Part shown: positions 15,002-54,565 of the stretch, one piece after another
Position numbering within the stretch: position 1 is the first letter of the stretch
Layout of the letters: each line of letters begins with the position of its first letter
Source of the DNA: a virus
Lineage: Duplodnaviria; Caudoviricetes
Length of the DNA: 54,565 bases
Reading direction: 5' to 3' (one strand)
Virus record (IMG/VR): IMGVR_UViG_3300017910_000855
Location: 1 to 54,565 of that record
Notes under the pieces: model-generated
What the model was told of the DNA's origin: nothing
The model's database searches: none
Seen by the model: the letters and a program-made list of their open reading frames with translations, nothing else
Position numbers and translations under genes: made by a program

Positions 15002-18000
15002 ATGGCTAACGTACAAAGAAATTTTATAAAAGGTGTAATGAATAAAAGTCTCGATGAGAGACTTTTGCCTAATGGTCAATACGTTGACGCATTAAATGTA
15101 CGTTTAGGTTCTACAGAAGACTCTGAAATAGGTTCTGTAGAAAACAGTAAAGGTAACTCTAAACTTACCTCTCTTGAATACAACGGAAATGTAGTTGGTC
15201 AAACAGGTCAAGCCAAATGTATTGGTGCTTATGAAGACGGTGCAAATGAAACTTTGTATTGGTTTGTTCACGACCCTGATTTTCAATCGAGTCCTACAAA
15301 CAAAATTGATTTAATAGTTTCTTTAAATGTACAAACAAATGTATTGACATATCACGTTATAAGCGTGGATGATGGAGGTGGTATCAATACAACTTTAAAT
15401 TTTAACGACACTTATTTAATCACAGGAGTAAATCTTGTAGATAACACACTATTGTTTTTTACTGATGATTTGAATCCTCCTCGTGTAATAAACGTAACTA
15501 AAAACTATCCCAACCCTGTAGCATTAGTAGATGGCTTTACACCTAACTCTATTCTTGTTATTAAAAAACCACCATTAAATTCTCCTAATGTAGTAGCTCA
15601 ACCCACTTCTTCTCAAAACAATTTTTTAGAAGATAGGTTTGTTTGCTTTGCTTACAGATATAAATATGCAGATGGAGAATACTCTGCAACTTCACAGTTC
15701 TCAAATCCTGCGTTTCTGCCGGGTGCATTTGATTATAGTTTTGCAACAGGATTAAATGAAGGAATGTTGAACCTTGCTAATCAAGCTACCATAGAATATA
15801 ATTCAGGAGATGACTTAGTTGTAGGTATAGATTTATTGTGGAAGGATAATGCTACCGGATTAATACGTGTAATTGAAAAGTTAGATAAAAGTGTATTAGG
15901 GTTAATCAATAACACCAACTACACCTATACTTTCAGTAATAGTAAAGTATTTACAGTTTTACCTGATAGTGAGATTTTAAGATTGTATGACAATGTTCCA
16001 CGTTTAGCACAAGCTCAAACTATTATGGGCAATAGGTTAATGTATGGAGATTATTTAGAACAATATAATTTAGTATCAAAATCAGGCTTTCCTCTCAACT
16101 TAGATTATACGGTAGAAAAAATATCTAATGATGTTGGGTTGTCTGAATTAGAAGATGAACTAACCACAGGTAACTATTTAATAAATGGTAACCAAACTGC
16201 AGACAATGCAATAATTACATTCAAAGATATAGGCTTACTTGATTTAAAAGCAGGTGCTGCTATAGACTTTACAATAGTTTTTGAGCACTTTGCTTTTACA
16301 GGTCAAGCACCTTTTCCGCAACAAACAACAGGACAGTCCGAGATAAACTTTCAATATGTTTTACCTCAAGATTTTGCAAGTGCTTTTGAACTCGCAAACA
16401 GTGTAGACTTTATTGAAAAGATTGGAACCATAACTAACATTGAGCCTGTAGCAACCGCTTGTGATGGAAGTACGTTTACAGATTTATTTAACTGTATTAT
16501 TCCTCAAACCTTAGACACTTTAGAAAAATATGAAAGCGGTATAGATGCGGTTGGAGAACCAATTAGAATTATTTCAAGTCCGGGTTCAGACGACATAGGG
16601 TTTCAGCTACCTGCAATGAGTTTTGTAGACGACCCTACCGGAGCAGCTATAACACAAACTGTATATGAATACTATAGCATAATAAGTTCACAAGGTACAT
16701 TCCAAGAATTAGGAGACCCAAAAAGTTTACATAGTAACAGAAGTTACGAGATAGGTATAATTTATATGGATGAGTTTAATCGTGCCACAACTGCATTGGT
16801 TAGCGATACTAACACCATTCACGTTCCGTGCTCTGATTCAGAATTAGCAAATTCAATTAGAGTAACTATACCTCCAACACAACAGGCTCCTGAGTGGGCA
16901 CGTAGATATAAATTCTGTATAAAAGCAAACAAAGAAAATTACTTTAATGTTTATTCTTCTTTCTTTTTTAGAGACCCTACAACTTCAGCAGATTACTTTT
17001 TATTAGAAGGTCAGAACTCTCGTAAAGTAGAAGAGGGAGATATACTTACAGTAAAAGCAGACACAAATGGACCTTTACGTAGATGTGCTAATGCAACAGT
17101 GTTAGAAAAGAAATCCCAACCTGCAGACTTTTTAGGAAATGAAGATGATGGAGCTCCACCTCTTGACCCAAGTGGTGCAATTATTCCTATACCGGCAGGA
17201 GTGTATATGAAGTTAAGAGCTAATGAGTTTTCTACTACAGTACCTGAATTACCTACAGTAAACTTTGGAGAAAAAAGTAGTAAAGGAAGTGGTTGTAGAA
17301 TTGTTCACTATCCTGTACAAATAGAAGACCCTTCCACTCCGGGTACTTATATTGATTACACTATACCGGCAGGTAGTAGAATTAGAATAGTAATTGACAA
17401 CTATAGAAGAGGTAATACAGATAAATTATTTGGTGGAGTAAGTAAAAAAATATGGTTTGTTGATGCAGACTTTACTGCTTCTCAAGATTATCCAAATTTT
17501 GTCGATTGGTTTAATGGAGACAATGTAGCATTGGCTTTACAACAACAAGGAAGTGATGAAGGAACAGGTGTTTCCGGACCAAACTACAACCCTGTACTTG
17601 ACGGAGGTTTATTGAGTTGTGAGACAGGTCGTATTTCTTGTGTGTTTGAAACTCCGGCAGCTTCAGGACAACCGCAGAATACTTTTACAGTAAAAAGCTC
17701 TAAAGGTTATTCAGGTAGTAATAAAAACGCAAGGTTAAAAGTAAGAATAGAGGTTTTAAGAAGCACTTCTTTTATTGCTTTTGAAACAGAACCTCAAGAC
17801 GCTCAACCTGATGTTTGGTTTGAAAGCTCAAAATCTTATGAAATTGCTCAAGCAAATAGTTGTGTATTTACATTCAACGCATCAGGAGCAGAAACAGGTC
17901 CTATACAGTTTGATTATACAGATTTAGCAGGACTTCCTGCATCTGTAATTTTACAACCGGGAACAAATCAAGAGGTAGTTGGAGAGTGTGGCTCTGCTTC

Positions 18001-29825: not shown

Positions 29826-32800
29826 ATGAACGAGGAATACTTACAGGAACTCTACAACTATTTAGGTCAGAATGACGAGAGTTTTTCTGCAGAAGTTGAT
29901 TTTGCTACATTCACTTCGGATATGCAAGACCAACAATATGCTGCTCAAATATATAATTATTTAGGTGGTCTCGATGACACATTTAAAATGGAAGTAAATG
30001 TGAATCAGTTCTTTGAAGATATAGGAGCAGTAAAAAAAAAAGACGAACCAAAACAAAGTGGGGATTTACCTTCGGAAGATGGTTCATCGGAATCAGTCGA
30101 GATTGAAGAGGTTGATTTCAACACCCTCAAAACTCCAAATCCAAATGAAGTTATAGGAAGAGACACAAGAGCTGCAGACTATGTAGACCCTATGACGATG
30201 GTAGGAATGTATCCTGACCAAAACACTCTTGATTTAGCTCGTGCACAACAAGCTGCAGATTTTAAATTTACTGCTCAACTTGTTCAACAAGATGAGCCTG
30301 AACTCACAGAGATACAAGCTCAAGAGGAAGCAGAAAGAGCAGTTAACATTGAAACTGAAACTACAGGTCGTGAAGAAGTAATTCAAACTCAAGAGTTTAA
30401 CGATGCTCTTAGCAAAACTAATGTTGAAGCTATACAAATGGAAGAGGGAGAAGCAGTTCCTTATTTCAACGATATGTATTCTCAATACGGTTTTGTTTTT
30501 AGACCAATAGGTTTAGGAGATGCAATGGAAGTTACTACTGTGTTAGCAGATGGTAGTGTGGCTAAAGAAGAGATTGACTTAGACCCTTTTACTACCAAAG
30601 GTGCAGAAACAGAATCACAAAAACTCAAAGCGTTTGTACAGAAATACGCTAAAAAACCTGAAGAAGCAAGAGAGGAAGCTGAAAGCAACTTTGCACAAGC
30701 TGCTTTGAAAGCTAAGTATTTACGAAACACTCCAAGAATAAATGCCGATGGAACTGAATCAACTGTAATGTTTCAGTCTGCGGTTATAGATGGGAAGAAT
30801 GTAGTTTACCCAACCTTGTTCCCTATCAATCCAAATTTATCAACTACCAATCCTGAGTATTGGACAGAGTTAGATGGGATGGAAGCCTATGAAGAAGCCG
30901 TAAAACGTGGAGAGGTATTTAATTTTGGAACTGCAGAAGAAGCAGATGAGTTTGCAGCAGGGTCTTGGAAAGACTATAATAGTATTGATGCAGAAGGTAA
31001 TCGTTTCTTTGATGAAAGAGGTTATGATTATTTAGAAGTTCGTAATCAATTTGATGAATATGAAAGAGCACGAGACGTTTCATTTTTTATAGAAGACAGG
31101 TTAAAAGAAGGTAGACAACAATTTGGTTTCGGAGATAAAAAAGAACTTAAAAATCTAACACCTGAAGAGCAAGAAAAGTACGGTTATCTTTATACCGAAA
31201 ACGGTCTTTTACGAGCAGATTTAGAACAAATTCTTGAAAGAGAACAAAAAATAGTTGATGAACTACAAGAGATATATACTGACGATGACCTTCAAGAAGT
31301 AAGAGAAGACTTTGATGTGTTTATTGACAAACAGTTTCAACAACTTAGTCAAGAAGCCTCGCTCAGTAATGCTTCGGCAAAGTATATACAGAATGAATTA
31401 GAAGCAAATTCTTTTGCAGAGTTTGGTGTAGGTATAGAAGAATTATATAACTACATACCTGATGATGTGGAAGGTGCACAAATGAGAGATGCTATTCTTA
31501 CTTCATATCAGGCAAGTAAGGATGTTCAACAATTAGCTGCTGATAAATATGAAGTGGGTCAAACTTTTTTAGATGGAAAGTTTGATGAAGAACTACGTGG
31601 AGAAATAGTAGAGAACTATGCAGGAATGCAGCAACAAATTACTGAAGGTCTTAACAGAGGAAAAGCAGGTAATGAAATACTAAAGATAGCTCTTGGCTTA
31701 GAAGATGTTGACGATGAGGAATCTACTGCACAAATTGCTCAACGTATTGTTGATTTTATGGAGGCATCTAACACAGGTAAAACAAGTAGAGCTATGTCTC
31801 GTTGGCATAGTGCAAGAGGTTTTAGAGAAGCGTGGGATGCGTTTAGTGATAACCCTGCAGAGTTGGCACTTAGTTTTGCAGCCAATAGTATCAGTCAAAT
31901 GCTTCCTTATGGTACTAAAATTATTGGAATATCTACAGGTTCAGGTATTGCTACAGGTGCGGGAATCGGAGCAACCGGTTTTGTCACAGGTCCGGGTGGA
32001 GTATTAACCACAGGTGGAGGTGCAATTGCAGGTGGTGCTTGGGGTTTGAGAACAGGGTTTGCTGCAACGTCACTTGCGTTAGAGTATACTAATGCGGTTA
32101 TGGAGGCAATGACCAACAATGGTTATGATGTCTTAAATTCTAATGACGTAGCTATTGCTTTGAGCGATGAAAATGTTTGGGCAGAAGGAAGAGAACGAGG
32201 ATTAAAAAGAGGTATACCTATCGCTATGGTAGATATGCTTTCATCCGGTCTTGCAGGTCGAGTATTTAAGGTAGGAAAAACTGCAAGTCGAGGAAGACGA
32301 TTAGGTGTGCAAGTTGGAGAGCGTTTAGTTTTTGACCCGATAGCAGAAGCAACAGGGGAATTGGCAGCACAAATAAATGTAGGAGATGAAATAGACTATA
32401 AAGAGATATTTGCAGAAGCCATAGGTGGTATTGGTAACAATGCACCTTTCGCAGCTTTAAATATGGCTCTTGATGTACGAGCACAAAACAACACTAACAT
32501 AGCAAATGACCTTACTACTATAGCCGGTATTAACAGAGAGGTTGGTGGGATATTCAAACCAACTCCAACTCGTGTTTCTAATTGGGCAAACAATATGGAA
32601 CGTCTTGGTCAGATAAGTAAAGAAACAAACCAAAGAATACAACTTAATTTAGGTCTCAGACAAGACGCACTAAACGTATTAGAAACTACTCAAGGCAAGG
32701 TAGATGGAGATGTATTAAACAGAACAATGGAATTGTTGGCTGCCAAGCAAGAGCTTGAGTCTACTCCAAACAGAAAGCAAGTCTTTGCATCCAAGATAAA

Positions 32801-35800
32801 AGAAATTAATACAGAACTTGCAGAGTTAGCGGAAACAAAAAAAGTAAGACCTTCTGTAAGCACGGCTACTAACCAACAAATAGAACAAGGAAATACTTTT
32901 CAGCAAGGATTCCAAACAAACGTAGCAGGTATAGGACTTGTAGAGCAAACTTCAGATACTGATATAAGAGAAACGGCACAATCAAAATATACTATCAATG
33001 GTAAATCGTTAACACGTAGAAAGTTTTTGAACAGAATTAACGATATGTCTCCCAAGCAGTTAAAGGCAGCCAACATTACCATAGATAATGATGAGCAAGT
33101 AACTGATATATTAACTGAAAAATTTGGAACAGATGCCATTCAAGAGCAAGAAACAGGAAGCGTATCTCCGAATCAACGAACCGGAGATATACAATCGTTG
33201 GAAGAAGCGGTACGGACCGTTCAGCAAGAACAAACCACAGAACCTGAGACCACTCAGGAGGGTACGGTAGTAACAGAAGAACAAACTGTAGAGGAGCAAC
33301 CTGATGTAACTCCACAACCTGCAGTAGTTCCTCAATCACTTGTAAGACCTACACGTGCAGACGTTACTGCATTTGACAACAATACAATAGATGAAGCACG
33401 ACTTGACAGAATCCTTGCAGGGATAGCTGACAAGCAAATCGCAAACAAAAAACTTACAGTATTTCAGCAGAGAGTAGCAGAAAATAATCAAGCACGTATT
33501 GATGAAATAGTGTCTTCAAAGACACTAACAGATGAGGTTGCTGATTTAGAAGCAACTCTACAAACCCCTAAAGGAAAAGTAGATTTTAAATCAGAGTCTA
33601 AGTTTGTGCCTGATACTGATGAGGTTTCGCAAATAACCAAGACCATAAACGAGTCGCAGTCCGGTAATGTCTTTACAGATTTAGAAGAAACTACAGATGA
33701 ATCAGCATCAATAAATGTAGACGAACTAAATCAACGAACGGACAATGACATCCAAAGCATTGAAGATTTATCAATTGTAAAAGGTATACCGGTGGTCTTC
33801 ACTATTTCAGACCAACTAACTACGGGTCCTGTTACAAACGAATTGACAGGTAATACCATTGATAACCTTAGAGGTGGATTAGGATTTACCGGAACTGAAG
33901 GTAATCAAAATGCAGCGTGGGCAAACACTACCGAAGCAGAAGCAGGTACTATAATTGAGAAAGCTACGCAGGTATATGAAGCTAACAAACCAACCTTTGA
34001 AGAGTTTTGGGCAGCTAATCCTGAATACAATGGACACGTTCCTATGCCTGTTGTTAAAATGGGAGAAGGTTCTATTCTTTCAAATGAAGCTACTTTCCGG
34101 GTGTTTAAAGATAATTTAAGTAAAATACCTGAAGCTAACAGAAAGAAAGCCTTAGACGAGCTTGTAAGCAATTTACAAGCACGTATAGATGCACGTCAAG
34201 CAACAATAGATAAAGGTCAAGCATCCGAGTTGACAATAAGAAACTATAAAAAAGAAGTAGCAGGACTACAAGAACTAATCAAATTGATTAATGAAAGCGA
34301 TGCTAAACTACTTGATGATGTGGTATCAACAGAGTTTATACAACAACTGTCTCTTCCTACACGTAGAAGTTTTATAGAGCGTTTGACTTTTGGTCAACCT
34401 AATAGAGCACGTACATCTAAAAAACCAAGTAAGGGTCAAAAGAAAATACCTAATATACTTATTGAAGGTATGGACACTGACGCAGTTAATCTTGTACACC
34501 TTGCTACAATTACAGACTTAATTACAGAACCTCAGCTCAAAGATGTTCCTCAACGTAGTATCATTGCGTTACAAGCAGTAGATGTTTTGAACCCTGAAGT
34601 AATTAAAAGTGTACACCCTAACTATCCGTTTGGTGTAAAAGGTAAAACAATTGGAGTTCTACAAAATCCACAATCCATTGTATCAGTATATCCTGAAGCA
34701 TATCAAAATGCTATTAGAGGTTTAGTTGCTGAAGAAGGTAAAGGTAAAGTAGTTACAGAAGGTCAAAGAAAGAGAGCTACTATAGAAGAAAGAAAATCAA
34801 TGCCAAAAGCAGGGGAACTTGCACCATCAAGTGTAGGTACTATCCTTACAGAAACTCTTGGTGTTCAAAACGGACTACCAAATACGGAGTTTATTGGAGC
34901 TATATCGCAAGGTAATGTAGACAACGCTACCAAGTTAACTGCTTTTATGAACATAGCTTTCCCTCAAACAAACATTACAACAGATAGAGCTACGTTCGAC
35001 ACAGTAATGGAGCAAGAGAACGTACAAAAATACAAGAAGGGAGACCAAATTATTTATGGTGTTACAGTTGATGGAGATATTTATATTAATCCTGATGTAC
35101 ACAATTCAGAGTCTGCACTGTTCAATACTTCGATTCACGAGATGGGTCACGTATGGACTGATTATCTACAGACTACCAAGAAAGGTAAAGCAATATACGC
35201 TAAGGGTGTCAACCTTGTAAAGCAAACACAAGAATATCAAAGACAGTTAAAGAAGTTTGATGGCAACGAAGCTAAGGCTGCTAATGAAACTATAGCCATC
35301 TTGATTGGAAACAAAGGACAAACAATAGCAGATGCATCTTTGAAGTCTAAGTTCCAACAGTGGTTGCTTGGAATGTGGAACTATATTAAGTCGCAGTTTA
35401 CACAGACTCAAGACTTAACCGCAGAACAAATACAAGACCTAACTCTTGATGAGTTTATTGGGTCCGCACTTGCAGATATATTTGCAGGTAAGCAAATCAA
35501 ATTGACTGACAGTCAATTAAAGAAAATGAAAAACCCTGAAGCTGCATTTAGTAGTGAGATGTCTATCACTGCTATTGTAGAACGAGGTAGAGAGAATGGG
35601 TTTTCTGATGCGTCTATACGAGAAGTATTAAGAGGCAGAGGTTTTGCTGCAGCAGATATTAACGAAGCTATGACTTATCAGGTAGACCTCTTCAACGAGT
35701 TACCTTCAGAGTTCAGAAGAGTTGAGGGTGGTATTCTACGTGCGGCTAAATTATTTAATGATGTCAATGTAGCATTACAAAAGTTCGCTACATCAGGCAG

Positions 35801-38800
35801 ACCTAATGTTATTGGTAGAAGAAGAGTTAAATCTTTTGCAGACATTCGTCAAAAAGCACAGGAGTTAATTCAAGACCATCCTATATATAAAGAACAAAAC
35901 GAACAAGTTCAGATGGAACTTCGTAGTGGTTTAGACAGGTCTCTTGGTTATAGAGGAAATAAAAATGTATCTCAAGAGATAGGAAAAATAAGAGAGGCAC
36001 TAAAGCAAAGAAGAGTAGGAGCAAAAAATTTAAAAGACGCACAGTTGCGTTTAAAGAATTTTATCAGAGCCAACTTACCTAAGTCTAAAAACTACAGTCA
36101 AGCACAGATAAACAGATTAATAAACACTGTAGCCAATACTAACTTAGATAACTTTCAAGCTCAAACCGAAAAGGTTTTGAAGATTGTTGAGCAGCAAAGA
36201 GCTAAGATAAAACGTGATGTTATTGCTGATATAGTTAAAACAGTAAAAGCAAAAGCACGACCAAGAAAACAATCAGGTAAGCCAAGACCGAAGGGTATTG
36301 ATGCGATAGGACAAGTAGTATTTGCTAACATTAAAACTGTAATGGATGCAGTTAGCATAACCAATCCTGAAGCAAGAGCTCAGGCATTACAAGATATTAA
36401 AGATAAGTTAGATGCGAATCGTATTGTAATTGACAACGCTATTCAGAAGCAGATAAACAATGAAGAACTGACTCTGCAGGAGGAAAGTTTGATGCAATTA
36501 CAGTTGGCTTATGACCAATTCTCTGACCTTGATACTGCATCTTTGGAGGTAGCACAAGCACTACTTGAAGATGTAAAGCAGCAAAAAGCTGAATCAATTT
36601 TGCGTTTTAACAACAGAAGACTGCAAAAAGCTGCAAGAGCCGAAGCAGTAGCAGAAGAAGCTACCAATCAAATTAAAGAAACTAATGCAGATTTATTTAA
36701 TGAAGATGGTAGTTTAAAGGATAGTAATGAGCTTAATGAAGATAGAGATGCTATTCAAAAAGACTTCACTGCTCGTGGTATTGTAAAGAAAGTGTTCTTA
36801 AAAATAAGAGACAATATATTTGGTAGAGCACAAAGCAAGATTACTAACTTTAAAAATCTACTTACGCATTTAGGTACGGTCACAAACTTTTTAGATAGAA
36901 AAAACAAAGGACTAAATATATTCCGTGACAAAGTATATCGTAAACTAAATAGAATGGAAGAGGTCGCACTTCAGAATATGAGAGTGATGCGACAAAAGGT
37001 AGATGAGATTGCAAGTGAAGCCGGGATTGAAGGTGGTTTCATAGGGGTAGAGAGTTTAGTAAACAGAGCTTTAGGTACAAGTAAAACAGGTGTGCCTAAT
37101 ACTAAAACATTAAATTTAGTTACAACTAAAACAGGTAGAAAATACAAGTCTGAGTTCAACGCAAATCAATTGCTTAGAATATATGCATTAAGTAAGAACC
37201 CTGTTCAACGTGCAAAATTAGAAGCACAAGGAATCACAGATGCGGTGTTAGCTGATATTGCTACAGACTTGGGTCCTGAACTTACTTCGTTTGCAGACAA
37301 GATGGTTGACTATCTAAGTACAGATTACTTCAATCAAACCAATTCAGTTTACAAACAAGTGAACGGAGTTAACTTAGGATTTGTAGAGAACTATTTCCCA
37401 ACTAAAACTATTGCAGCTAAAGTAGATGCTAAGATGTTGGAAGACGGAGACTTCAATGGTATCTTCTCTGCCGAAACTGCACCTGCATTTAAAGACAGGG
37501 TAGACTACGGTAGTGATGTTAATTTAAAAGAAGGAACATTTACAAATGTATTGATGAACCATATGGAAACTATGGAGCGATACAAAGCGATGGCTGCAGG
37601 TGTTCAAGAGCTGAACTCCTTCTTTAATATACCTGCAGTTAATACATTGCTTGATGTATCAGGAACTAAGACATTAGTAAAAACATTAGTTAATGCAACA
37701 GTTAATCCTCAATCGGCTGCCAAAGCAGACGGTGTGAGCAGTGGTGTATTAGAATGGTTTCAGAGAAAGTTTACTTCTTTTGCATTAGCATTCAAAGTAA
37801 TTCAAATTGCAAAACAGGCAACATCTTTTGTCAATGCATTTGAGCAATATAGTTACTTACCTAAAGACAGTAAAGTTCCAAAAGTATTACAAGGACCGCT
37901 TGACCTTATGATGTTTACTGTAGACGGTGCAGGTGTCTTGTTTGATATGGCAAAAGACCTTGTAGGTTTGGATGGAGCAATATCAAAAGCTCGTAAGATG
38001 TCAGCTCAGTTTGACCAACGTGTACGTGAAGGTTTAGAGGGAGATGTGTATGGACTTGAAACCGGTAGCCAAACATTTAAACAAGCCGGTAAAGGAACAG
38101 GTTTGTACAGAAGATTTGTGGATGGATTTAAAAGACTCTCTTCACGACCAACTATCATCGGAGATATAATGGGAGTGATGGGTTATTATATAAACTACAA
38201 ACGTAATATCGCTAATGGTATGAGTGAGGCACAGGCATTGGAGGAGTTCAATGATTACAATGCCACTCAGCAAACAAGAAGAGCAACAGAAAAAATTCCG
38301 TTACAATTGAAAGGAGACTTTGCTTCTAAAGGATTTACAATGTTTGGTAGTACATTATTCTTGCAAATAAACAAAGTAATGTCAAGTGCAACCAACATAA
38401 TGAGAGCGTTGGGTAGCGGAAAAGTTCCAAGCAAACAAGATATACGAGGATTCTATTTAAACTTTGCAGTTGCCAACATATTGTTTACAGGTATGTCAAA
38501 CATTGCACTTCTTACACGTGGAGATAGTGAAGACAGAGATGCGTTCTATCGTAAATTAAAAGATGCGATGATGGGATTGAACTTAATGTATCAGATTCCT
38601 TATTTGGGTGCAGCAATTGAGAAAGGTATAAACACATATAGAGGAGATAGAAAACCTGTTAGTGATGTTACTAATCCATTTGCATCTATTCAAAGTAAGA
38701 TACAGAAAAACTTTAGAGATAATCCTGACTCAGCATTTAAGAATACCATATTGCCTTTAATTGAAATCGCTATGGGTGCACAAGTGGACCCATTCATTGG

Positions 38801-39116
38801 GATGTTCAATGCAAGTAAAGATATACTAAAAGGAGATATGAGTTCAGAAGAGTATTACAATAATGTATACGACTTCTTAGGTATCACTCCATCATATAGA
38901 CCGGGATATGGACAGAAAGGTTCTTCAGTCAAAGGTATCATTCCACAAGGAGGTATTAAAACAAAGACAGACCTGAAGCGTTACGACCCTGAGTTGTATG
39001 AACAGGTGTATGGAGAGAGAGATAGAATTAAAAAGGAACAAAAAGAATTAAGAAAACAAGCACTTCAAGACTTGGGTTACAAAGAAGTAGGAGGTAAACT
39101 TTATCCTATTGAGTAG
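29826..39116 (+). CDS. Giant internal virion/polyvalent protein with zincin-like HExxH motif
   Basis: 3096 aa, no Cys seen; Gly-rich hydrophobic segment GIATGAGIGATG...GGAWG; SIHEMGHVW at 35136-35150. Confidence 0.75.
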   Translation: MNEEYLQELYNYLGQNDESFSAEVDFATFTSDMQDQQYAAQIYNYLGGLDDTFKMEVNVNQFFEDIGAVKKKDEPKQSGDLPSEDGSSESVEIEEVDFNTLKTPNPNEVIGRDTRAADYVDPMTMVGMYPDQNTLDLARAQQAADFKFTAQLVQQDEPELTEIQAQEEAERAVNIETETTGREEVIQTQEFNDALSKTNVEAIQMEEGEAVPYFNDMYSQYGFVFRPIGLGDAMEVTTVLADGSVAKEEIDLDPFTTKGAETESQKLKAFVQKYAKKPEEAREEAESNFAQAALKAKYLRNTPRINADGTESTVMFQSAVIDGKNVVYPTLFPINPNLSTTNPEYWTELDGMEAYEEAVKRGEVFNFGTAEEADEFAAGSWKDYNSIDAEGNRFFDERGYDYLEVRNQFDEYERARDVSFFIEDRLKEGRQQFGFGDKKELKNLTPEEQEKYGYLYTENGLLRADLEQILEREQKIVDELQEIYTDDDLQEVREDFDVFIDKQFQQLSQEASLSNASAKYIQNELEANSFAEFGVGIEELYNYIPDDVEGAQMRDAILTSYQASKDVQQLAADKYEVGQTFLDGKFDEELRGEIVENYAGMQQQITEGLNRGKAGNEILKIALGLEDVDDEESTAQIAQRIVDFMEASNTGKTSRAMSRWHSARGFREAWDAFSDNPAELALSFAANSISQMLPYGTKIIGISTGSGIATGAGIGATGFVTGPGGVLTTGGGAIAGGAWGLRTGFAATSLALEYTNAVMEAMTNNGYDVLNSNDVAIALSDENVWAEGRERGLKRGIPIAMVDMLSSGLAGRVFKVGKTASRGRRLGVQVGERLVFDPIAEATGELAAQINVGDEIDYKEIFAEAIGGIGNNAPFAALNMALDVRAQNNTNIANDLTTIAGINREVGGIFKPTPTRVSNWANNMERLGQISKETNQRIQLNLGLRQDALNVLETTQGKVDGDVLNRTMELLAAKQELESTPNRKQVFASKIKEINTELAELAETKKVRPSVSTATNQQIEQGNTFQQGFQTNVAGIGLVEQTSDTDIRETAQSKYTINGKSLTRRKFLNRINDMSPKQLKAANITIDNDEQVTDILTEKFGTDAIQEQETGSVSPNQRTGDIQSLEEAVRTVQQEQTTEPETTQEGTVVTEEQTVEEQPDVTPQPAVVPQSLVRPTRADVTAFDNNTIDEARLDRILAGIADKQIANKKLTVFQQRVAENNQARIDEIVSSKTLTDEVADLEATLQTPKGKVDFKSESKFVPDTDEVSQITKTINESQSGNVFTDLEETTDESASINVDELNQRTDNDIQSIEDLSIVKGIPVVFTISDQLTTGPVTNELTGNTIDNLRGGLGFTGTEGNQNAAWANTTEAEAGTIIEKATQVYEANKPTFEEFWAANPEYNGHVPMPVVKMGEGSILSNEATFRVFKDNLSKIPEANRKKALDELVSNLQARIDARQATIDKGQASELTIRNYKKEVAGLQELIKLINESDAKLLDDVVSTEFIQQLSLPTRRSFIERLTFGQPNRARTSKKPSKGQKKIPNILIEGMDTDAVNLVHLATITDLITEPQLKDVPQRSIIALQAVDVLNPEVIKSVHPNYPFGVKGKTIGVLQNPQSIVSVYPEAYQNAIRGLVAEEGKGKVVTEGQRKRATIEERKSMPKAGELAPSSVGTILTETLGVQNGLPNTEFIGAISQGNVDNATKLTAFMNIAFPQTNITTDRATFDTVMEQENVQKYKKGDQIIYGVTVDGDIYINPDVHNSESALFNTSIHEMGHVWTDYLQTTKKGKAIYAKGVNLVKQTQEYQRQLKKFDGNEAKAANETIAILIGNKGQTIADASLKSKFQQWLLGMWNYIKSQFTQTQDLTAEQIQDLTLDEFIGSALADIFAGKQIKLTDSQLKKMKNPEAAFSSEMSITAIVERGRENGFSDASIREVLRGRGFAAADINEAMTYQVDLFNELPSEFRRVEGGILRAAKLFNDVNVALQKFATSGRPNVIGRRRVKSFADIRQKAQELIQDHPIYKEQNEQVQMELRSGLDRSLGYRGNKNVSQEIGKIREALKQRRVGAKNLKDAQLRLKNFIRANLPKSKNYSQAQINRLINTVANTNLDNFQAQTEKVLKIVEQQRAKIKRDVIADIVKTVKAKARPRKQSGKPRPKGIDAIGQVVFANIKTVMDAVSITNPEARAQALQDIKDKLDANRIVIDNAIQKQINNEELTLQEESLMQLQLAYDQFSDLDTASLEVAQALLEDVKQQKAESILRFNNRRLQKAARAEAVAEEATNQIKETNADLFNEDGSLKDSNELNEDRDAIQKDFTARGIVKKVFLKIRDNIFGRAQSKITNFKNLLTHLGTVTNFLDRKNKGLNIFRDKVYRKLNRMEEVALQNMRVMRQKVDEIASEAGIEGGFIGVESLVNRALGTSKTGVPNTKTLNLVTTKTGRKYKSEFNANQLLRIYALSKNPVQRAKLEAQGITDAVLADIATDLGPELTSFADKMVDYLSTDYFNQTNSVYKQVNGVNLGFVENYFPTKTIAAKVDAKMLEDGDFNGIFSAETAPAFKDRVDYGSDVNLKEGTFTNVLMNHMETMERYKAMAAGVQELNSFFNIPAVNTLLDVSGTKTLVKTLVNATVNPQSAAKADGVSSGVLEWFQRKFTSFALAFKVIQIAKQATSFVNAFEQYSYLPKDSKVPKVLQGPLDLMMFTVDGAGVLFDMAKDLVGLDGAISKARKMSAQFDQRVREGLEGDVYGLETGSQTFKQAGKGTGLYRRFVDGFKRLSSRPTIIGDIMGVMGYYINYKRNIANGMSEAQALEEFNDYNATQQTRRATEKIPLQLKGDFASKGFTMFGSTLFLQINKVMSSATNIMRALGSGKVPSKQDIRGFYLNFAVANILFTGMSNIALLTRGDSEDRDAFYRKLKDAMMGLNLMYQIPYLGAAIEKGINTYRGDRKPVSDVTNPFASIQSKIQKNFRDNPDSAFKNTILPLIEIAMGAQVDPFIGMFNASKDILKGDMSSEEYYNNVYDFLGITPSYRPGYGQKGSSVKGIIPQGGIKTKTDLKRYDPELYEQVYGERDRIKKEQKELRKQALQDLGYKEVGGKLYPIE
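33510..33525 (+). repeat. 16-bp palindrome copy 4 (in giant gene, read as VSSKT)
   Basis: TAGTGTCTTCAAAGACACTA. Confidence 0.97.
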
Positions 39117-49767: not shown

Positions 49768-50048
49768 AAGTGACCTCCTATCTCTAATTTATCACAATCA
49801 AATCTCCATTCTGATTCTGATTCAGGTTCATTCATAAATGATTTGTTGTGGTCATTAGCATCATCATCTGTTCCGAAGCCATACTCGTATGTTGCTTCGT
49901 TCATTGCGTTATCTATCTTATCGACATACAAATCTTCATTATCCCATAAGTATTCGATTAACTGTGCCGAGTTTAAGTTTTCAGGCACGTCTATTTCTAC
50001 CGATGCAAATTTGTGGTAGACACTGCGTTGTTGTATTCTAACTTTCAT
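49764..50048 (-). CDS. Acidic hypothetical early protein
   Basis: Likely start MKVRIQ at 50048, downstream of a promoter. Confidence 0.7.
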   Translation of the reverse strand: MKVRIQQRSVYHKFASVEIDVPENLNSAQLIEYLWDNEDLYVDKIDNAMNEATYEYGFGTDDDANDHNKSFMNEPESESEWRFDCDKLEIGGHL

Positions 50049-50071
50049 TTGATTTAAGTTTAATGTTTGTT

Positions 50072-50103
50072 CAAAGATAGTACAAAGTTTTGAACTATCC
50101 AAA
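50072..50103 (-). promoter_or_regulatory. Bacteroidota sigma-A promoter
   Basis: Minus strand TTTG-N20-TATCTTTG, matching the -33/-7 consensus. Confidence 0.8.
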
Positions 50104-50406
50104 TTTTATATCCGTGAGTTTGACCCACCAATGTCCGTCAATGATTTTCTTATTCGCTTGACTCCACCATTGTGTCTTTGAAGACACTGACTTAGGTAGG
50201 TATCCAACTTCGATTCCTATCTTCAACCCCAACTTCAGTGCCTCATCAATCTCATCGTGCGACTCAATCAGTGAGTCGGTATCATCATCGTGAATAACGT
50301 ACAACTCGTGACCGAGCCATATCTCTTCACGTTTTTTCTCTCCCTGTTTCATTTGGTCAGTAACGTCTAACCAAACGAACCTGTCTTTAGATAAATGTAT
50401 TGCCAT
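50095..50406 (-). CDS. Hypothetical early protein
   Basis: 103 aa ORF coupled to the upstream gene. Confidence 0.7.
   Translation of the reverse strand: MAIHLSKDRFVWLDVTDQMKQGEKKREEIWLGHELYVIHDDDTDSLIESHDEIDEALKLGLKIGIEVGYLPKSVSSKTQWWSQANKKIIDGHWWVKLTDIKFG
50172..50187 (-). repeat. 16-bp palindrome copy 11 (coding, VSSKT)
   Basis: GTGTCTTTGAAGACAC on + strand. Confidence 0.97.
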
Positions 50407-50648
50407 TACTCATCCCATTTTAATTCCAACTCGTAGTCGTCTGTTGCAACTTGGTCTATCGTTTGAAAGATTTGCTCCGTAATCCAATCGTTGCTCAGTG
50501 CGTCTTTTAATACTCCCATTGCTACTTCGGAGTCGCATTTGTAATTCTGCGTCACATCTTGCAAGTGCCACAGAGAAAAGGTTTGAAACCCACGCACCTC
50601 TAACTCTTTGCGTAAGTCGTGCGTTGATACTGATTTTAAATTTTCCAT
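50406..50648 (-). CDS. Hypothetical early protein
   Basis: Likely start MENLKS at 50648; the longer ORF-track start runs into the ribozyme. Confidence 0.7.
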   Translation of the reverse strand: MENLKSVSTHDLRKELEVRGFQTFSLWHLQDVTQNYKCDSEVAMGVLKDALSNDWITEQIFQTIDQVATDDYELELKWDE

Positions 50649-50666
50649 AATGTATGATTTAAGATT

Positions 50667-50717
50667 TCTGTTTCTGTCTTTTGACTTCATCAGCACGGAC
50701 ACACATCCGTGAACAGA
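50667..50717 (-). ncRNA. Hammerhead ribozyme, type III, variant (HH-B)
   Basis: Minus strand UCUG-U-U^-CACGGA[UGUGUG]UCCGUG-CUGAUGA-AGUC[AAAA]GACA-GAAA-CAGA; core intact; GUU triplet and A-A mismatch at the base of stem II. Confidence 0.8.
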
Positions 50718-50720
50718 GCA

Positions 50721-50736
50721 GTGTCTTTGAAGACAC
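50721..50736 (-). repeat. 16-bp palindrome copy 12 (intergenic, abutting ribozyme HH-B)
   Basis: GCAGTGTCTTTGAAGACACTGC, 50718-50739. Confidence 0.97.
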
Positions 50737-50747
50737 TGCCTTGCGGT

Positions 50748-51824
50748 TTAGGAGAAACGTAGCACCTCTTCTTGCCCAAACCAAGTATCACATCCATTGC
50801 AGTGATAGTTATTGAAACCGTCAAACTCCAAGTCGTGACAACAGTCAACACAAATAGGATTGTCGTTTGGATTGTAGTCGTCAGCAGACATATCATCAAA
50901 CAAATCAACCTGTGTGCAAGGTGGTGTGTCGTCAACAAAGTCAACTGTATCAACCCAACGTCTTGTTGGTGTAACAACCCTTTGGTAGTCTTTGATATGA
51001 TTACTACCATTCCATTCCTTTTCCTCTTGTGGATTGAAGTATATCCAAGCAGTGATGGTTTTGTTCTTCATCTTGATAGGTATCTGCTTTCTGCAGTACC
51101 ATTGTGGGTGTCCTTCCAATCCGTCTAACCTACGTAGAGTATCGTCTGATACTTTGAACACGTCTACAACTACGTTGTGACCTTTCCCTTTCTTCTCAAT
51201 CAGAAATGGGATACCACGTGATACCATTGGGTACTTGTCTTTGGTCTCGCCTTTTCCAAGATGCTTTGAATTAGTTAGGTAAGTGTAGTAGTTACCAAAC
51301 CCTTTCTTTAGTGTACCATACACCGCCACAACATTGCTTTGCAATACGTTGGTTTTCGAATACCATACTCCGTCTTTCAATGTATACAAATGCTTGTTGA
51401 AGATTTGAAACGAACGAGTACGGGTATTGATTGCCACGAAACGAGCATCGAACTTTGCCAACGATTGTTTCCAAGTGTGACGAGGAGAACGACCCAACTT
51501 GATAGCCAAGTCTTCTGTGTCTGTCATATTTTTGTTGCCGTAGCCACGAACGGTGCCGTTCATCATAAGCAACTCGTCTTTGTTGTTACCGCAGACGAAT
51601 GGGTGTGTGTTTTCCTTACAGATTTTACCAACCGTTGCATACCTGAAGTGTGCAATGTATGGTCTGTCGTTGTCCAACACACCGAACTCTTTTGATTGAT
51701 GATAGCTGACCTCGAACGTGTCGAGCCATACGATTCCCAATCCGTGAGGATTGATACGTGATGAATTTTTAAGTATCTCACGTGATACTGATTTACCTTT
51801 TTGTTTGATAATAATAATACACAT
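50748..51824 (-). CDS. Class II glutamine amidotransferase fused to gamma-glutamylcyclotransferase (AIG2-like) and a C-terminal Zn ribbon
   Basis: True start M-C-I-I (Ntn nucleophile Cys2) at 51824; NPHGLG, HFRYAT, HPF, NG, TDTE; VAVYGTLKKG, LDGLEGHP.WY.R; CVDC...CNGC. Confidence 0.9.
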   Translation of the reverse strand: MCIIIIKQKGKSVSREILKNSSRINPHGLGIVWLDTFEVSYHQSKEFGVLDNDRPYIAHFRYATVGKICKENTHPFVCGNNKDELLMMNGTVRGYGNKNMTDTEDLAIKLGRSPRHTWKQSLAKFDARFVAINTRTRSFQIFNKHLYTLKDGVWYSKTNVLQSNVVAVYGTLKKGFGNYYTYLTNSKHLGKGETKDKYPMVSRGIPFLIEKKGKGHNVVVDVFKVSDDTLRRLDGLEGHPQWYCRKQIPIKMKNKTITAWIYFNPQEEKEWNGSNHIKDYQRVVTPTRRWVDTVDFVDDTPPCTQVDLFDDMSADDYNPNDNPICVDCCHDLEFDGFNNYHCNGCDTWFGQEEVLRFS

Positions 51825-51844
51825 AGTGTTTGGTTTTGTGAGCA

Positions 51845-51860
51845 GTGTCTTTGAAGACAC
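51845..51860 (-). repeat. 16-bp palindrome copy 13 (5' leader between promoter and GATase start)
   Basis: GTGTCTTTGAAGACAC on + strand. Confidence 0.97.
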
Positions 51861-51888
51861 AGAACTCTGATTTAACATTTGATTTAAA

Positions 51889-51920
51889 CAAAGATACGAC
51901 TAAATTTAGACATATCCAAA
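51889..51920 (-). promoter_or_regulatory. Bacteroidota sigma-A promoter
   Basis: Minus strand TTTG-N20-TATCTTTG; shares TTTGGATA with the 50072 promoter. Confidence 0.8.
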
Positions 51921-52082
51921 TTACCTACTGACAACTGCAGTAAATTTATTTCTGACTATCCATTTGTACGTGCCTACATTTTCATTGTAGATTTTGTCAA
52001 TGGCTTCCCATTTCGTGTGAGCAGGTACAACTTTGATTAGCTTACCTGCATACCTTACTTTAAAATATCTCATCGCTTCCAT
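51921..52082 (-). CDS. Small hypothetical protein (53 aa, absent from ORF track)
   Basis: MEAMRYFKVRYAGKLIKVVPAHTKWEAIDKIYNENVGTYKWIVRNKFTAVVSR*; TAATG coupling. Confidence 0.7.
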   Translation of the reverse strand: MEAMRYFKVRYAGKLIKVVPAHTKWEAIDKIYNENVGTYKWIVRNKFTAVVSR

Positions 52083-52249
52083 TACAATTCAAATAATTCA
52101 TCAAGCAAGTAACCTTTGGTTCTGTTGATGTAGTTAATAAAATTGTCGCAATGATTCTTGTCGTTGAACTCTTTGGTCACGACCCACTCGCCACGATTAT
52201 TTCCGTACGAGACTTGTCCTGTCTTGAAGACTAATTGAACTTTGTACAT
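52082..52249 (-). CDS. Small hypothetical early protein
   Basis: Likely start MYKVQL at 52249 after an A-rich leader; the longer ORF-track start overlaps the ribozyme. Confidence 0.7.
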   Translation of the reverse strand: MYKVQLVFKTGQVSYGNNRGEWVVTKEFNDKNHCDNFINYINRTKGYLLDELFEL

Positions 52250-52268
52250 AACTTTTAATTTAATGTTT

Positions 52269-52330
52269 GACATAGAGGTAGTGTCTTTGAAGACACCACC
52301 TTTCGGGTATTCAACCCTCATCAGTATGCC
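52269..52330 (-). ncRNA. Hammerhead ribozyme, type I (HH-C); stem III is the 16-bp palindrome
   Basis: Minus strand GGCAUA-CUGAUGA-GGGU[UGAAU]ACCC-GAAA-GGUGGUGUCU[UCAA]AGACACUACC-U-C^-UAUGUC; all three stems pair, canonical core, CUC triplet. Confidence 0.88.
52281..52296 (-). repeat. 16-bp palindrome copy 14 (inside ribozyme HH-C)
   Basis: GTGTCTTTGAAGACAC on + strand. Confidence 0.97.
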
Positions 52331-52548
52331 TATACTCGGTCTGCTTTCCAACCTTGATAGATTAGTGAAAAGATAACTCCACTAATGAACAACAAGAACA
52401 TTCCAACGAACCCTACATACACCCACTGATACCACACAAAAGTATGTTGTGATATGATGTGAATGAATAAACGTAGCACCATTGATAGAACTCCGATGGC
52501 AACGATTGTTGTTACTGACTTTTCGATTGTGTTAACTAAATTTCTCAT
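52330..52548 (-). CDS. Small two-TM membrane protein flanked by ribozymes
   Basis: Likely start MRNLVN at 52548 (72 aa); two hydrophobic helices. Confidence 0.7.
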   Translation of the reverse strand: MRNLVNTIEKSVTTIVAIGVLSMVLRLFIHIISQHTFVWYQWVYVGFVGMFLLFISGVIFSLIYQGWKADRV

Positions 52549-52575
52549 AATGTTTGATATTAAAATTATTTGTTT

Positions 52576-52626
52576 CCTGTTTCGACCTTTTGGTCTCATC
52601 AGCACAAGCACTCACTTGTGGACAGG
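52576..52626 (-). ncRNA. Hammerhead ribozyme, type III (HH-A)
   Basis: Minus strand CCUG-U-C^-CACAAG[UGAGUG]CUUGUG-CUGAUGA-GACC[AAAA]GGUC-GAAA-CAGG; fully canonical core, GUC triplet, G10.1-C11.1. Confidence 0.93.
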
Positions 52627-52647
52627 GGGAGCATTCGCTCCCTCTCA

Positions 52648-53667
52648 TTATCTCAACCCTTTGGATTGTATTTCCTCTCGGAACTTAGCGAGAGCGATGT
52701 CACTCTCGTCAACTCCACGTTTGATGTATGTACCCCAAACTTGTCGGTTACCGCTCATTGAAAGTCGGTTTGGTCTTCCGCTCCACCACTTTTCGAACCA
52801 ACCGATTGTGCTTTGCTCCACACGACCTGTCTTGACGAACTTGTGAAAGTCTTTTGCCAACTCAATGACCGCATCGGTCTTGGTCTCGTTCTTGTCGTAC
52901 ATTCCCATAAGGATTGGTCTGACTGCATTCCAAAACCCTCGTATGCTCTTGCCATTGACCCCATAGTCAAGTATTAAGTACATTAGCTCGTAACGTCTCA
53001 TCAACTGCTTTACTGACTGCACTCTGCTCGGTATACGGAACTCGATACACTCGTCAACGATTTTGCAAACAGAGTATTTTACTACTCGCTCTTGATGTCT
53101 CTCGAAACGGAACTCACTCATCATTCTTGGATTCCACTTGCAGTAGTGATTCGACAAACGATGTCTGAACACTGACAACAGGATTGATGCATATGGAGCA
53201 ACTTTGTCAGCCAACTCTTGACCTGTCAACCCCTTACAAGCAACTGTGATGTGACCACCGCAACTGCTATCGCTCGGACTGAACTCATCATTGATGATGT
53301 GCTTGGCTTCAACAAACATATTGAACACCTTTGTTCGCCACATTGACTTACCTACCAAAGGTAGAACGTGTGTGACTGCTTCATAACCGCAACTACTATC
53401 AGTCTCAAACCCACAAAATAATGGGTACTCCTTGATTGAACTCCTGTGCAACCTCGTTTTCTCGATTTCAAAACCGATAGTGAACTTGCTCTCGAACTCG
53501 TCTCCGTCTACAACAACATTGGTTCTGTCTGTAGATTGCAACCCTTTGATTTCAGATTGCTTTGCTTTGGTTCTGAAGATTGGACTTGGTTTGCTATGGT
53601 ATGATGATACACTACCACGTCTGTCTGTGTCTCTGATTTCTTCGAACCTTGTTACTAAATTATTCAT
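52648..53667 (-). CDS. Putative amidoligase (COOH-NH2 ligase, glutamine synthetase-like fold)
   Basis: TIGFEIEK, ETDSSCGYEAVT, DSSCGGHITV, IEFRIP. Confidence 0.8.
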   Translation of the reverse strand: MNNLVTRFEEIRDTDRRGSVSSYHSKPSPIFRTKAKQSEIKGLQSTDRTNVVVDGDEFESKFTIGFEIEKTRLHRSSIKEYPLFCGFETDSSCGYEAVTHVLPLVGKSMWRTKVFNMFVEAKHIINDEFSPSDSSCGGHITVACKGLTGQELADKVAPYASILLSVFRHRLSNHYCKWNPRMMSEFRFERHQERVVKYSVCKIVDECIEFRIPSRVQSVKQLMRRYELMYLILDYGVNGKSIRGFWNAVRPILMGMYDKNETKTDAVIELAKDFHKFVKTGRVEQSTIGWFEKWWSGRPNRLSMSGNRQVWGTYIKRGVDESDIALAKFREEIQSKGLR

Positions 53668-53683
53668 TGTGCTACGTGTTTTT

Positions 53684-53699
53684 GTGTCTTTGAAGACAC
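53684..53699 (-). repeat. 16-bp palindrome copy 15 (intergenic, 16 nt before amidoligase start)
   Basis: GTGTCTTTGAAGACAC on + strand. Confidence 0.97.
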
Positions 53700-53702
53700 T
53701 GA

Positions 53703-54347
53703 TTAATTATTGATTTGATTAAACCTTTCAACCATTTGGTCATTCAGTTTTGTAAACAACTCTACGATGAGGTTATCGGTGTTGTTGTCTTCACAAACTC
53801 CACTCATCTTGATACCGCTCTCGGTTAGTCTGATAGAGAAACCGCTATCGCCATTGATTCCGTCTTTCGCAAGACTGAATGTTGCAAAGGTTTTCTCTCT
53901 TGAAACTTCGGTGTCTTCGCCACTGATTTCTGCTTTCGCAAACTTCAATAGACTCTCGATACTTCTGTTAGCGTCTTCGCCATTGTTCTCTGCTTTTGTG
54001 CATTCTCTTTTGAACTTCGTAACGATTCTTTGGTTTTCTTCTTGCAGTTTACCCGCCTTGACCATTTTGTAACCGAACGACTTTTGCCAACCGAATACCC
54101 TGTTGAAAAAGACTTCTGTGTTACTCCATTCGATACCATTGTCTTCGAGCAGTGTCTTGGTCTCGCTTGACTTGAACCACTCGACTGATTGGCTAACTAA
54201 CTTCGCTAACTTTAGCGACTTGTCGAACTTCGACTTCTTTGCATCGGCAACCTCACTCTGTAGATTGAAGATTGACTGAAAGTTTACATTCGAACGTACT
54301 TCGGCAGAGGTTAAAAAGTCTGCCTCGATTTGCATTAAATTACTCAT
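53703..54347 (-). CDS. First gene of the early arm; hypothetical protein with a possible HTH-like segment
   Basis: 214 aa; helical segment WSNTEVFFNRVFGWQKSFGYKMVKAG. Confidence 0.75.
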   Translation of the reverse strand: MSNLMQIEADFLTSAEVRSNVNFQSIFNLQSEVADAKKSKFDKSLKLAKLVSQSVEWFKSSETKTLLEDNGIEWSNTEVFFNRVFGWQKSFGYKMVKAGKLQEENQRIVTKFKRECTKAENNGEDANRSIESLLKFAKAEISGEDTEVSREKTFATFSLAKDGINGDSGFSIRLTESGIKMSGVCEDNNTDNLIVELFTKLNDQMVERFNQINN

Positions 54348-54408
54348 AACTTGTTGATTTTAAATTAATTACGTTTAATTGAGGATTATTCCTCGTTCAT
54401 TACTTGTG

Positions 54409-54438
54409 TAAATATAGTCTTTTTCTGCATTCCCACAA
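54409..54438 (-). promoter_or_regulatory. Putative early promoter (variant -7)
   Basis: Minus strand TTG-N19-TATATTTA upstream of the first early gene. Confidence 0.55.
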
Positions 54439-54565
54439 GGGTTTTCTTTCATTTTTTTTCATCCTGTGTCTAATTCTCTTTTGTCTTTTGATTGTCAACA
54501 GGTTACGTCAAACGTGTTCCTTGTCTTTTGTATTGGCTCAAAAAATGTCGCTCAGGTGCTAAGGA

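Follow-up and report, generated by a model that had tools for sequence, protein, structure and literature searches.

What does a self-cleaving RNA do between two genes of a phage operon? Parts of a 2019 review (PMC6765202) describe the purpose of bacterial and phage hammerheads as still unsettled and in need of more work, and the locus presented here raises this question in a concrete form. It belongs to the viral record IMGVR_UViG_3300017910_000855, which is about 90% complete and which we analysed over its full length of 54,565 bp (referred to as the window in the following). Genes on the minus strand span the region from about 54347 down to 39131 in the list of open reading frames (ORFs), and in the gap between two of them a first-pass annotation, made from the sequence alone, had placed a small hammerhead, here called HH-A. 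Two further hammerheads, HH-B and HH-C, are encoded in the same operon; the coordinates of all three are given in Table 1, together with those of the surrounding features.

Table 1. Hammerhead ribozymes of the window and the features around them, with positions in the window
Feature	Position	Strand	Description
Upstream gene	52648..53667	-	339 aa (ORF list); stop codon 52650..52648
Hairpin abutting HH-A	52627..52642	-	GGGAGC/GCUCCC, 6-bp stem, loop GAAU; ends on the base preceding HH-A; no U tract
HH-A	52576..52626	-	Type III hammerhead, 51 nt; predicted cut between 52621 (C17) and 52620
HH-A stem III, 5' strand	52626..52622	-	CCUG + U16.1
HH-A cut-site base	52621	-	C17
HH-A stem I	52620..52615 + 52608..52603	-	CACAAG/CUUGUG, 6 bp
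HH-A loop 1	52614..52609	-	UGAGUG
HH-A core, positions 3-9	52602..52596	-	CUGAUGA
HH-A stem II	52595..52592 + 52587..52584	-	GACC/GGUC, 4 bp
HH-A loop 2	52591..52588	-	AAAA
HH-A core, positions 12-15.1	52583..52580	-	GAAA
HH-A stem III, 3' strand	52579..52576	-	CAGG (stem III = 4+1 bp)
Leader	52549..52575	-	A/U-rich, 27 nt, from HH-A end to next start codon
Downstream gene	52330..52548	-	72 aa, hydrophobic, between HH-A and HH-C; ATG at 52548
HH-C	about 52269..52330	-	Type I hammerhead; predicted cut after C52275; stem III holds the 16-nt palindrome
Palindrome hairpin adjoining HH-B	50718..50739	-	
HH-B	50667..50717	-	Type III hammerhead variant, 51 nt; GUU site; A opposite A at 10.1/11.1
Palindrome GTGTCTTCAAAGACAC, copies	5059, 12239, 25709, 33510, 39116, 46283	+	
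Palindrome GTGTCTTCAAAGACAC, copies	41900, 43122, 47234, 49020, 50172, 50721, 51845, 52281, 53684	-	

Whether HH-A is a hammerhead is, to begin with, a matter of its anatomy. It carries the hammerhead core at every position, with C3 U4 G5 A6 N7 G8 A9, G12 A13 A14, the A15.1-U16.1 pair and an H17 at the cut site (U52622 and C52621 being the bases at 16.1 and 17). The cut site is GUC, the stem II base pair G10.1-C11.1 is present (G52595, C52584), and the topology is that of type III, in which stems I and II are capped by loops and stem III is open. With its complete consensus core and three helices, HH-A thus deserves the name of a canonical type III hammerhead that the first-pass annotation had given it, and the coordinates, stems, loops and length listed there are all correct on a minus-strand reading. 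The core pattern CTGATGA-N6-30-GAAA has six matches at four places in the window, as opposed to 1.31 ± 1.07 in shuffled sequences, of which none in 100 reached six. Among these matches, only HH-A and HH-C have a closed stem II of four pairs adjoining the GAAA.

The minimum free energy (MFE) fold of the HH-A 51-mer in RNAfold is the hammerhead secondary structure (-15.8 kcal/mol, z -2.8, with 4 of 200 shuffles as good), and the 81-nt stretch that also contains the abutting hairpin reaches -28.7 (z -4.2, 0 of 200 shuffles as good). In the centroid fold of the same 81 nt, however, the core CUG pairs with CAG and stem III is not formed, and the MFE fold of the HH-B region likewise pairs the core CUG with CAG. 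Because of this alternative, thermodynamic folding alone cannot single out the active fold.

Database models, too, recover HH-A only in part. Rfam returned no hammerhead in the window at the gathering score or at a window-scale E-value, and HH-B has no hammerhead match in Rfam. A local search over 141 nt with RF00008 (Hammerhead_3) gave HH-A a score of 21.5 bits (E 0.013) with stem I unaligned, which is below the gathering cut-off of 48.5 bits; this cut-off is a classifier threshold and not a property of the RNA. Weak snoRNA-like and other Rfam matches in the window also lay below their respective cut-offs, and we took them as chance. As Rfam misses these hammerheads, phage annotation pipelines will not report them.

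The comparison with related viruses starts from the gene upstream of HH-A. Homologues of its 339-aa product are encoded on eight viral contigs, at identities of 46-95%. One of these contigs (L003) stops at the homologous gene and has no downstream sequence. Among the seven related loci that do extend further, three (L004, L005 and L006) have a type III hammerhead of HH-A geometry 32-36 nt after the homologous stop codon, and this synteny holds at a protein identity of 55-60%. In each of the three copies, two pairs of HH-A are replaced in a compensatory manner, an A-U by G-C in stem I and an A-U by U-A in stem II. The first-pass annotation had proposed to check whether substitutions at homologous loci are random or compensatory, and at L004, L005 and L006 they are compensatory. 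In L009, a hammerhead copy lies 3.1 kb downstream of the homologous gene, and the copies in L007, L008 and L010 are all of type I, at 1.6-1.8 kb in the same direction.

Beyond these loci, HH-A belongs to a large family. A scan of IMG/VR with a geometry-only pattern, comprising three loop 1 letters, CUGAUGA, GAAAC and their spacing, returned at least 120 stretches. Adding the window and its relatives brings the matches to at least 148, of which 126 pass as hammerheads and at least 109 are distinct; the latter constitute our alignment A1. Stem I is paired at all six positions in 127 of the 148 matches and at four or fewer in the other 21, a bimodal distribution that cannot stem from the search pattern. 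In A1, 95.5% of the 1635 pair cells hold a standard pair, against 64.8 ± 0.8% in shuffles (0/500), although for stems I and II this percentage is partly given by construction, because the rows were selected for stem I (at least 5/6 pairs) and for inner stem II pairing. Stem III, which was free of selection, is 94.5% paired. Changes on both sides are found in 551 cells, compared with 158 in shuffles (0/500), and the covariation score is 0.838, compared with 0.220. When the partners are slid by 1-3 columns, pairing is at 33-50% and the covariation score at 0.07-0.13. Double changes occur in 12 of the 15 pairs (all six of stem I, three of stem II and three of stem III), a count that does not discriminate, as 372 of 500 shuffles reach it as well.

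We also built a covariance model (R2) from 100 viral rows, leaving out the window, L004-L006, L009, L038:2875, L079 and L117. In the window, with filters off, the R2 score is 71.4 bits for HH-A (E 5e-20) and 69.4 bits for HH-B, and the next match, which is not a hammerhead, reaches 10.9 bits. The compensatory double changes, both in L004-L006 and across the 109 members of A1, strongly support the earlier proposal that selection acts on structure rather than on sequence. HH-A is a real, canonical and selected hammerhead. To take it for a chance match or a dead relic, one could point to the lack of an Rfam call, yet this is already contradicted by the comparative data, namely the covariation in 109 distinct sequences, the synteny over considerable protein divergence and the score from the leave-out model, and we give it a negligible probability.

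The loops follow a known pattern as well. According to the parts of Dufour et al. (2009; PMC2632901) that treat them, the motifs UNmYN in loop 1 and RNnA in loop 2 are tied to a loop-loop tertiary contact, and HH-A fits both at the sequence level, with UGAGUG in loop 1 and AAAA in loop 2. Positions 2-4 of loop 2 are A in at least 90% of A1, even though the search pattern had left them free. For loop 1, we ran a second IMG/VR scan in which both loop 1 and stem I were unconstrained, and which returned at least 126 distinct matches. Among the 126 matches listed, 110 have a stem I hairpin adjoining the core and 95 have the exact geometry of HH-A; in these 95, the inner letters of loop 1 are GUGU in 51 and GAGU in 25 (U-GUGU-R or U-GAGU-R in 76/95). 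As the unconstrained scan still returns these motifs, the conservation of loop 1 does not stem from the search pattern. The first-pass annotation had stated that fast natural hammerheads use loop 1-loop 2 contacts, with a loop 1 that starts with U and a purine-rich loop 2; the motif fit and the conservation of the loops support this, and HH-A may make such a contact.

The second type III hammerhead of the operon, HH-B, had been described as a paralogue that covaries with HH-A. Much of this holds: the two share the same 51-nt geometry, the stems and loops listed for both are right, and six pairs are changed on both sides and still paired. At 10.1/11.1, as the notation of the same description itself shows, HH-B has A opposite A, and with this and a U at position 17 it is not fully canonical. 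The HH-B copy in L004 is identical, and the one in L006 has a compensated stem I, retains the A opposite A and has a GUC site. Since its deviations are kept in relatives, we regard HH-B as a variant class and not as a decayed copy. It sits 3' of a 376-aa ORF (50748-51878, minus strand), which is a near neighbour of the 339-aa gene and contains a GGACT (gamma-glutamyl cyclotransferase-like) domain as well as weak matches to class-II glutamine amidotransferases (GATase). The third hammerhead, HH-C, starts where the stop codon of the 72-aa gene lies, and for the product of this gene profile searches found no family match. The fold of HH-C has a z of -4.55, the ribozyme matches RAGATH-1-hammerhead with 19.2 bits (E 0.27), and the stem II changes in its orthologues in L004 and L006 are fully compensated.

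Across A1, positions 10.1/11.1 take three forms, G-C in 65, U.U in 37 and A.A in 7 of the 109 sequences, and no other combination occurs. The cut-site base tracks these forms: sequences with G-C have C17 in 51 cases, A17 in 13 and U17 in one; those with U.U have A17 in 30, U17 in five and C17 in two; and those with A.A have U17 in six, C17 in one and A17 in none, the next stem II pair being always G-C in this last class. Twenty pairs of A1 sequences belong to different classes while being near-identical otherwise (at most six differences over the remaining 48 columns), and 19 of these 20 pairs also differ in the base at position 17. A similar association is found in 64 distinct type I hammerheads (loci L004-L197), where U.U comes with A17 in five of five cases, representing three unrelated designs, and G-C comes with C in 49 and with A in six cases. 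The densest array that we saw is that of L087, an IMG/VR contig of 42.9 kb, in which five hammerheads of the 51-nt family with mixed classes lie within 4.5 kb.

Tentatively, these numbers could be read as three discrete, co-adapted classes of phage hammerheads in which position 17 is matched to the first stem II pair (G-C/C17, U.U/A17 and A.A/U17). If this were true, the classes would represent either a previously undescribed structural connection of position 17 with the 10.1/11.1 layer, or graded cleavage rates, which phages would then assign junction by junction and thereby tune how the operon is cut up. The coupling itself may come from joint rate attenuation, from a contact or from lineage effects. 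Our literature search for U10.1/U11.1 yielded only the study of Perreault et al. (2011; PMC3088659), which reports natural U10.1-U11.1 variants and whose main text contains no link to position 17 and no A.A variant, while its Dataset S1 may bear on this. In the literature that we searched, the tracking of the cut-site base with the first stem II pair thus appears unreported.

A further feature of the locus is the hairpin that the first-pass annotation had noticed between the upstream stop codon and HH-A, and which is indeed present there. In the family as a whole, 66 of 109 members have a perfect stem of at least 6 bp whose last base directly precedes the ribozyme, compared with 3.2% of random positions drawn from these loci (630 of 20000). 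Under a looser rule (stem of at least 5 bp), 75 of 109 members have a hairpin, and the gap to the ribozyme is zero in 68 of these 75. By a criterion based on RNAfold, a hairpin is present in 71 of the 93 members that have a co-directional ORF ending at most 100 nt upstream, in 6 of the 16 members that do not, and at 313 of 3000 random positions; a strong hairpin at a distance of 4 nt is found in another four of these 16. With 43 of 109 members lacking a perfect abutting one, the hairpin cannot be obligatory. At the HH-A position, it is plain and GC-rich in the window and of a palindrome type in L004/L005 and L006, and judging from these sequences it is the stem that is kept, not its sequence. 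On the other side of the ribozyme, the next ATG that opens an ORF follows after 10-34 nt in 93 of 109 members. The layout of the family is a fixed one, consisting of stop codon, hairpin, 51-nt ribozyme, short A/U leader and start codon.

The palindrome GUGUC...GACAC serves as the hairpin in 36 of 109 members. The window contains 15 copies of the 16-nt near-palindrome GTGTCTTCAAAGACAC, one of them TA-centred, at a chance expectation of 0.05; the copies are oriented with transcription, and some lie inside ORFs. A role of these copies in trans-cleavage was considered and rejected, as the sequences that follow them share no substrate-like motif. We likewise rejected the idea that the hairpin at HH-A is a terminator: there is no U tract 3' of its stem, and no terminator-like (sigma-70-type) site was found on the minus strand of 50000-54565. 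The absence of such a site in this region fits a single long transcript. Several hammerheads without a hairpin (in L032, L039, L047, L049, L056, L058, L111 and L119) have promoter-like common words upstream. One set of these words contains ACCAGTAAATATT, and another is common to L109 and a cultured elemo phage (NC_055853.1 17920-17950). Ribozymes behind such promoter-like words may trim the 5' end of the primary transcript.

The role of the hairpin can be seen in two ways, which are not mutually exclusive. According to the first-pass annotation, it protects the 3' end of the released upstream mRNA; we would infer the same, and the data fit a role in folding and stacking equally well. Taken to its extreme, this second role would be the only one, and the hairpin would act as a folding insulator and a coaxial stack for a stem III of just 4-5 bp beside a long coding RNA, without protecting any 3' end. 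A gap of zero between hairpin and stem III in 68 of 75 members is what one would expect in this case. In the same vein, stem III is made up of no more than A15.1-U16.1 and four variable pairs, the outermost of which does not form in 28 of 109 members. Yet the type I copies in the same genomes, which need no such helper, also have a strong hairpin near the new end: their 5' product ends with the stem III hairpin plus two bases, resulting in the same kind of 3' end. Furthermore, hairpins are rarer where no ORF precedes the ribozyme, even if the four strong hairpins at a distance of 4 nt soften this contrast. We consider a purely structural hairpin unlikely, and a hairpin that also protects the 3' end remains our preferred reading.

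The nature of the phage and of the genes around HH-A provides the setting for this reading. Relatives of its terminase are found in podophages of Flavobacterium, Cellulophaga, Tenacibaculum and Maribacter (33-46% identity), and one spring-water genome encodes a terminase with 75% identity. RNA libraries from seawater and coral contain two 151-nt contigs that are identical to the matching part of the window, which argues for a marine phage. In the explanation that we favour, it would be a marine podophage of Flavobacteriia with HH-A in its leftward early operon. A comparison of 50300-53700 with GenBank phages gave no match at the level of DNA similarity. On the plus strand, the window contains two giant ORFs of 3256 aa (15002-24772) and 3096 aa (29826-39116); the N-terminus of the former is a crAss muzzle-protein domain (E 1.6e-12), and the latter has no match in Pfam.

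The label 'amidoligase' that the 339-aa gene had received in the first-pass annotation was not confirmed. Sequence searches against Pfam, PHROG and PDB gave no match, and in Pfam the PF12224 (Amidoligase_2) profile matched neither the protein nor six of its homologues, even at E 0.1-10. The lone support for this label comes from a language-model Atlas, as a lead whose nearest named cluster has PF12224 on 12% of its members. A structure prediction based on a seven-row alignment reached a pLDDT of 47, which is too poor for use.

We consider it probable that HH-A is a functional, cis-acting ribozyme that cuts the polycistronic RNA of the early operon into protected gene-length pieces. What the sequences show is the motif with its conservation and covariation, together with the association of ribozyme and hairpin; we infer in vivo cleavage, what becomes of the new ends and the effects on RNA stability and translation. 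Transcription of the operon would be accompanied by self-cleavage after C52621. The upstream fragment would carry the 339-aa gene and end 27 nt past its stop codon, with the hairpin and six further nucleotides that terminate in a 2',3'-cyclic phosphate. The downstream fragment would start at the first paired base of stem I, which would bear a 5'-OH, so that stems I and II would remain as a cap structure at its 5' end, followed by the A/U-rich leader of 27 nt and the 72-aa gene. The hairpin would probably act twice: before the cut by stacking on, and insulating, the very short stem III during folding, and after the cut as a 3'-terminal stem that slows 3' exonucleases. Finally, the shortness of stem III would permit the two products to part.

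The RNA libraries offer a glimpse of these transcripts. In the RNA runs, 5-13% of sampled words were present, and four runs yielded a few contigs of 151-283 nt, which contain no molecule ends, leave most of 51886-52424 uncovered and carry nothing informative over the HH-A cut site. One contig (X5, 50603-50753) runs unbroken over the HH-B cut site, so some uncut template was present there, be it RNA or contaminating DNA. Such uncut template is what one would also expect if cleavage were deliberately partial or regulated, with the ribozymes setting the expression ratio or the timing of neighbouring early genes and slower variants being placed at given junctions. Regulated or slow phage variants are raised in the discussion of Perreault et al. 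(2011; PMC3088659), and both the occurrence of the three discrete classes (G-C/C17, U.U/A17 and A.A/U17) within single genomes and the retention of the A.A class by the syntenic counterparts of HH-B in L004 and L006 would be in line with this idea. The association behind the classes could, however, partly reflect lineage, and HH-A itself is of the fully canonical, presumably fast class. On balance, we find regulated cleavage quite improbable as an explanation of the locus.

The arrangement of HH-A and HH-C, which are co-oriented and bracket the 72-aa gene, suggests yet another use, in which pairs of hammerheads excise RNA segments that are later circularised or spliced, such as the 346 nt that lie between the cuts of HH-A and HH-C. 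Ends with a 5'-OH and a cyclic phosphate are ligatable in principle. Among the few, sparse RNA-library contigs, though, there is no back-joined one, and in the parts of Perreault et al. (2011; PMC3088659) on this subject, spliced or circular products of clustered phage hammerheads were sought and none was found. We consider excision very improbable and retain the cutting of the early operon into protected gene-length pieces as the most plausible function of HH-A.

Hammerheads also exist in cultured relatives of the phage. Flavobacterium phage elemoF_6-3D has an unannotated type III variant with the core CUGAAGA (NC_055853.1 17867-17919, minus strand), which is the single model match in this genome (41.9 bits) and has no hairpin. 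It is located in the divergent intergenic gap that separates gp59 (17636..17851, minus strand) from 17997.., and gp59 begins a few bases downstream of it. In Cellulophaga phage phi19:3, an unannotated type I copy with the core CUGACGA has a stop codon inside its stem I (NC_021789.1, about 21785-21825, minus strand). No R2 match at E 0.1 or better was obtained in Cellulophaga phage phi38:1 or in Tenacibaculum phage Gundel_1, in searches whose prefilter may miss other geometries. Because cultured relatives carry hammerheads, both the capping of mRNA ends and the variant classes can be put to a direct test in a laboratory phage-host pair.

How, then, does HH-A compare with known systems? In the parts of Perreault et al. 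(2011; PLoS Comput Biol, PMC3088659) that deal with phages and prophages, several cis hammerheads are described as flanking genes, and they are proposed to turn long phage transcripts into gene-length mRNAs; clustered prophage hammerheads cleaved themselves in vitro, and one set of them did so in E. coli. Both the type of element and the way it punctuates an operon have thus been published before, and HH-A adds a member. The present operon resembles those clusters in having several cis hammerheads between its genes, with mixed topologies. It differs from them in that its hammerheads belong to marine Flavobacteriia podophages, have a rigid 51-nt geometry and abut an upstream hairpin, although the alignments of Dataset S1 may hold members of this family. 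Our literature search found no paper that links hammerheads with Flavobacterium, Cellulophaga or crAss-like phages, and Dataset S1 and Figures S6-S8 of the same study may bear on this novelty. The value of the locus, as we see it, lies in the size and regularity of the family (at least 109 distinct IMG/VR sequences), in a hairpin module that is open to testing and in the variant classes.

With the type III hammerheads of viroids, satellite RNAs and plant retrozymes (RF00008), HH-A shares the core, the connectivity of the helices and the open stem III, as well as a loop 1 of the UNmYN type and a loop 2 of the RNnA type (AAAA or GNRA). It differs from them in being encoded in the mRNA of a dsDNA phage and not in a replicating circular RNA, and in its score with their model (21.5 compared with the required 48.5 bits). 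In the early genes of phage T7, it is a host protein enzyme, RNase III, that cuts between the cistrons, which leaves the upstream mRNA with a 3'-terminal stem. HH-A resembles these sites in the 3' stem on the upstream mRNA, while its RNA is predicted to cut itself and to leave 5'-OH and cyclic phosphate ends.
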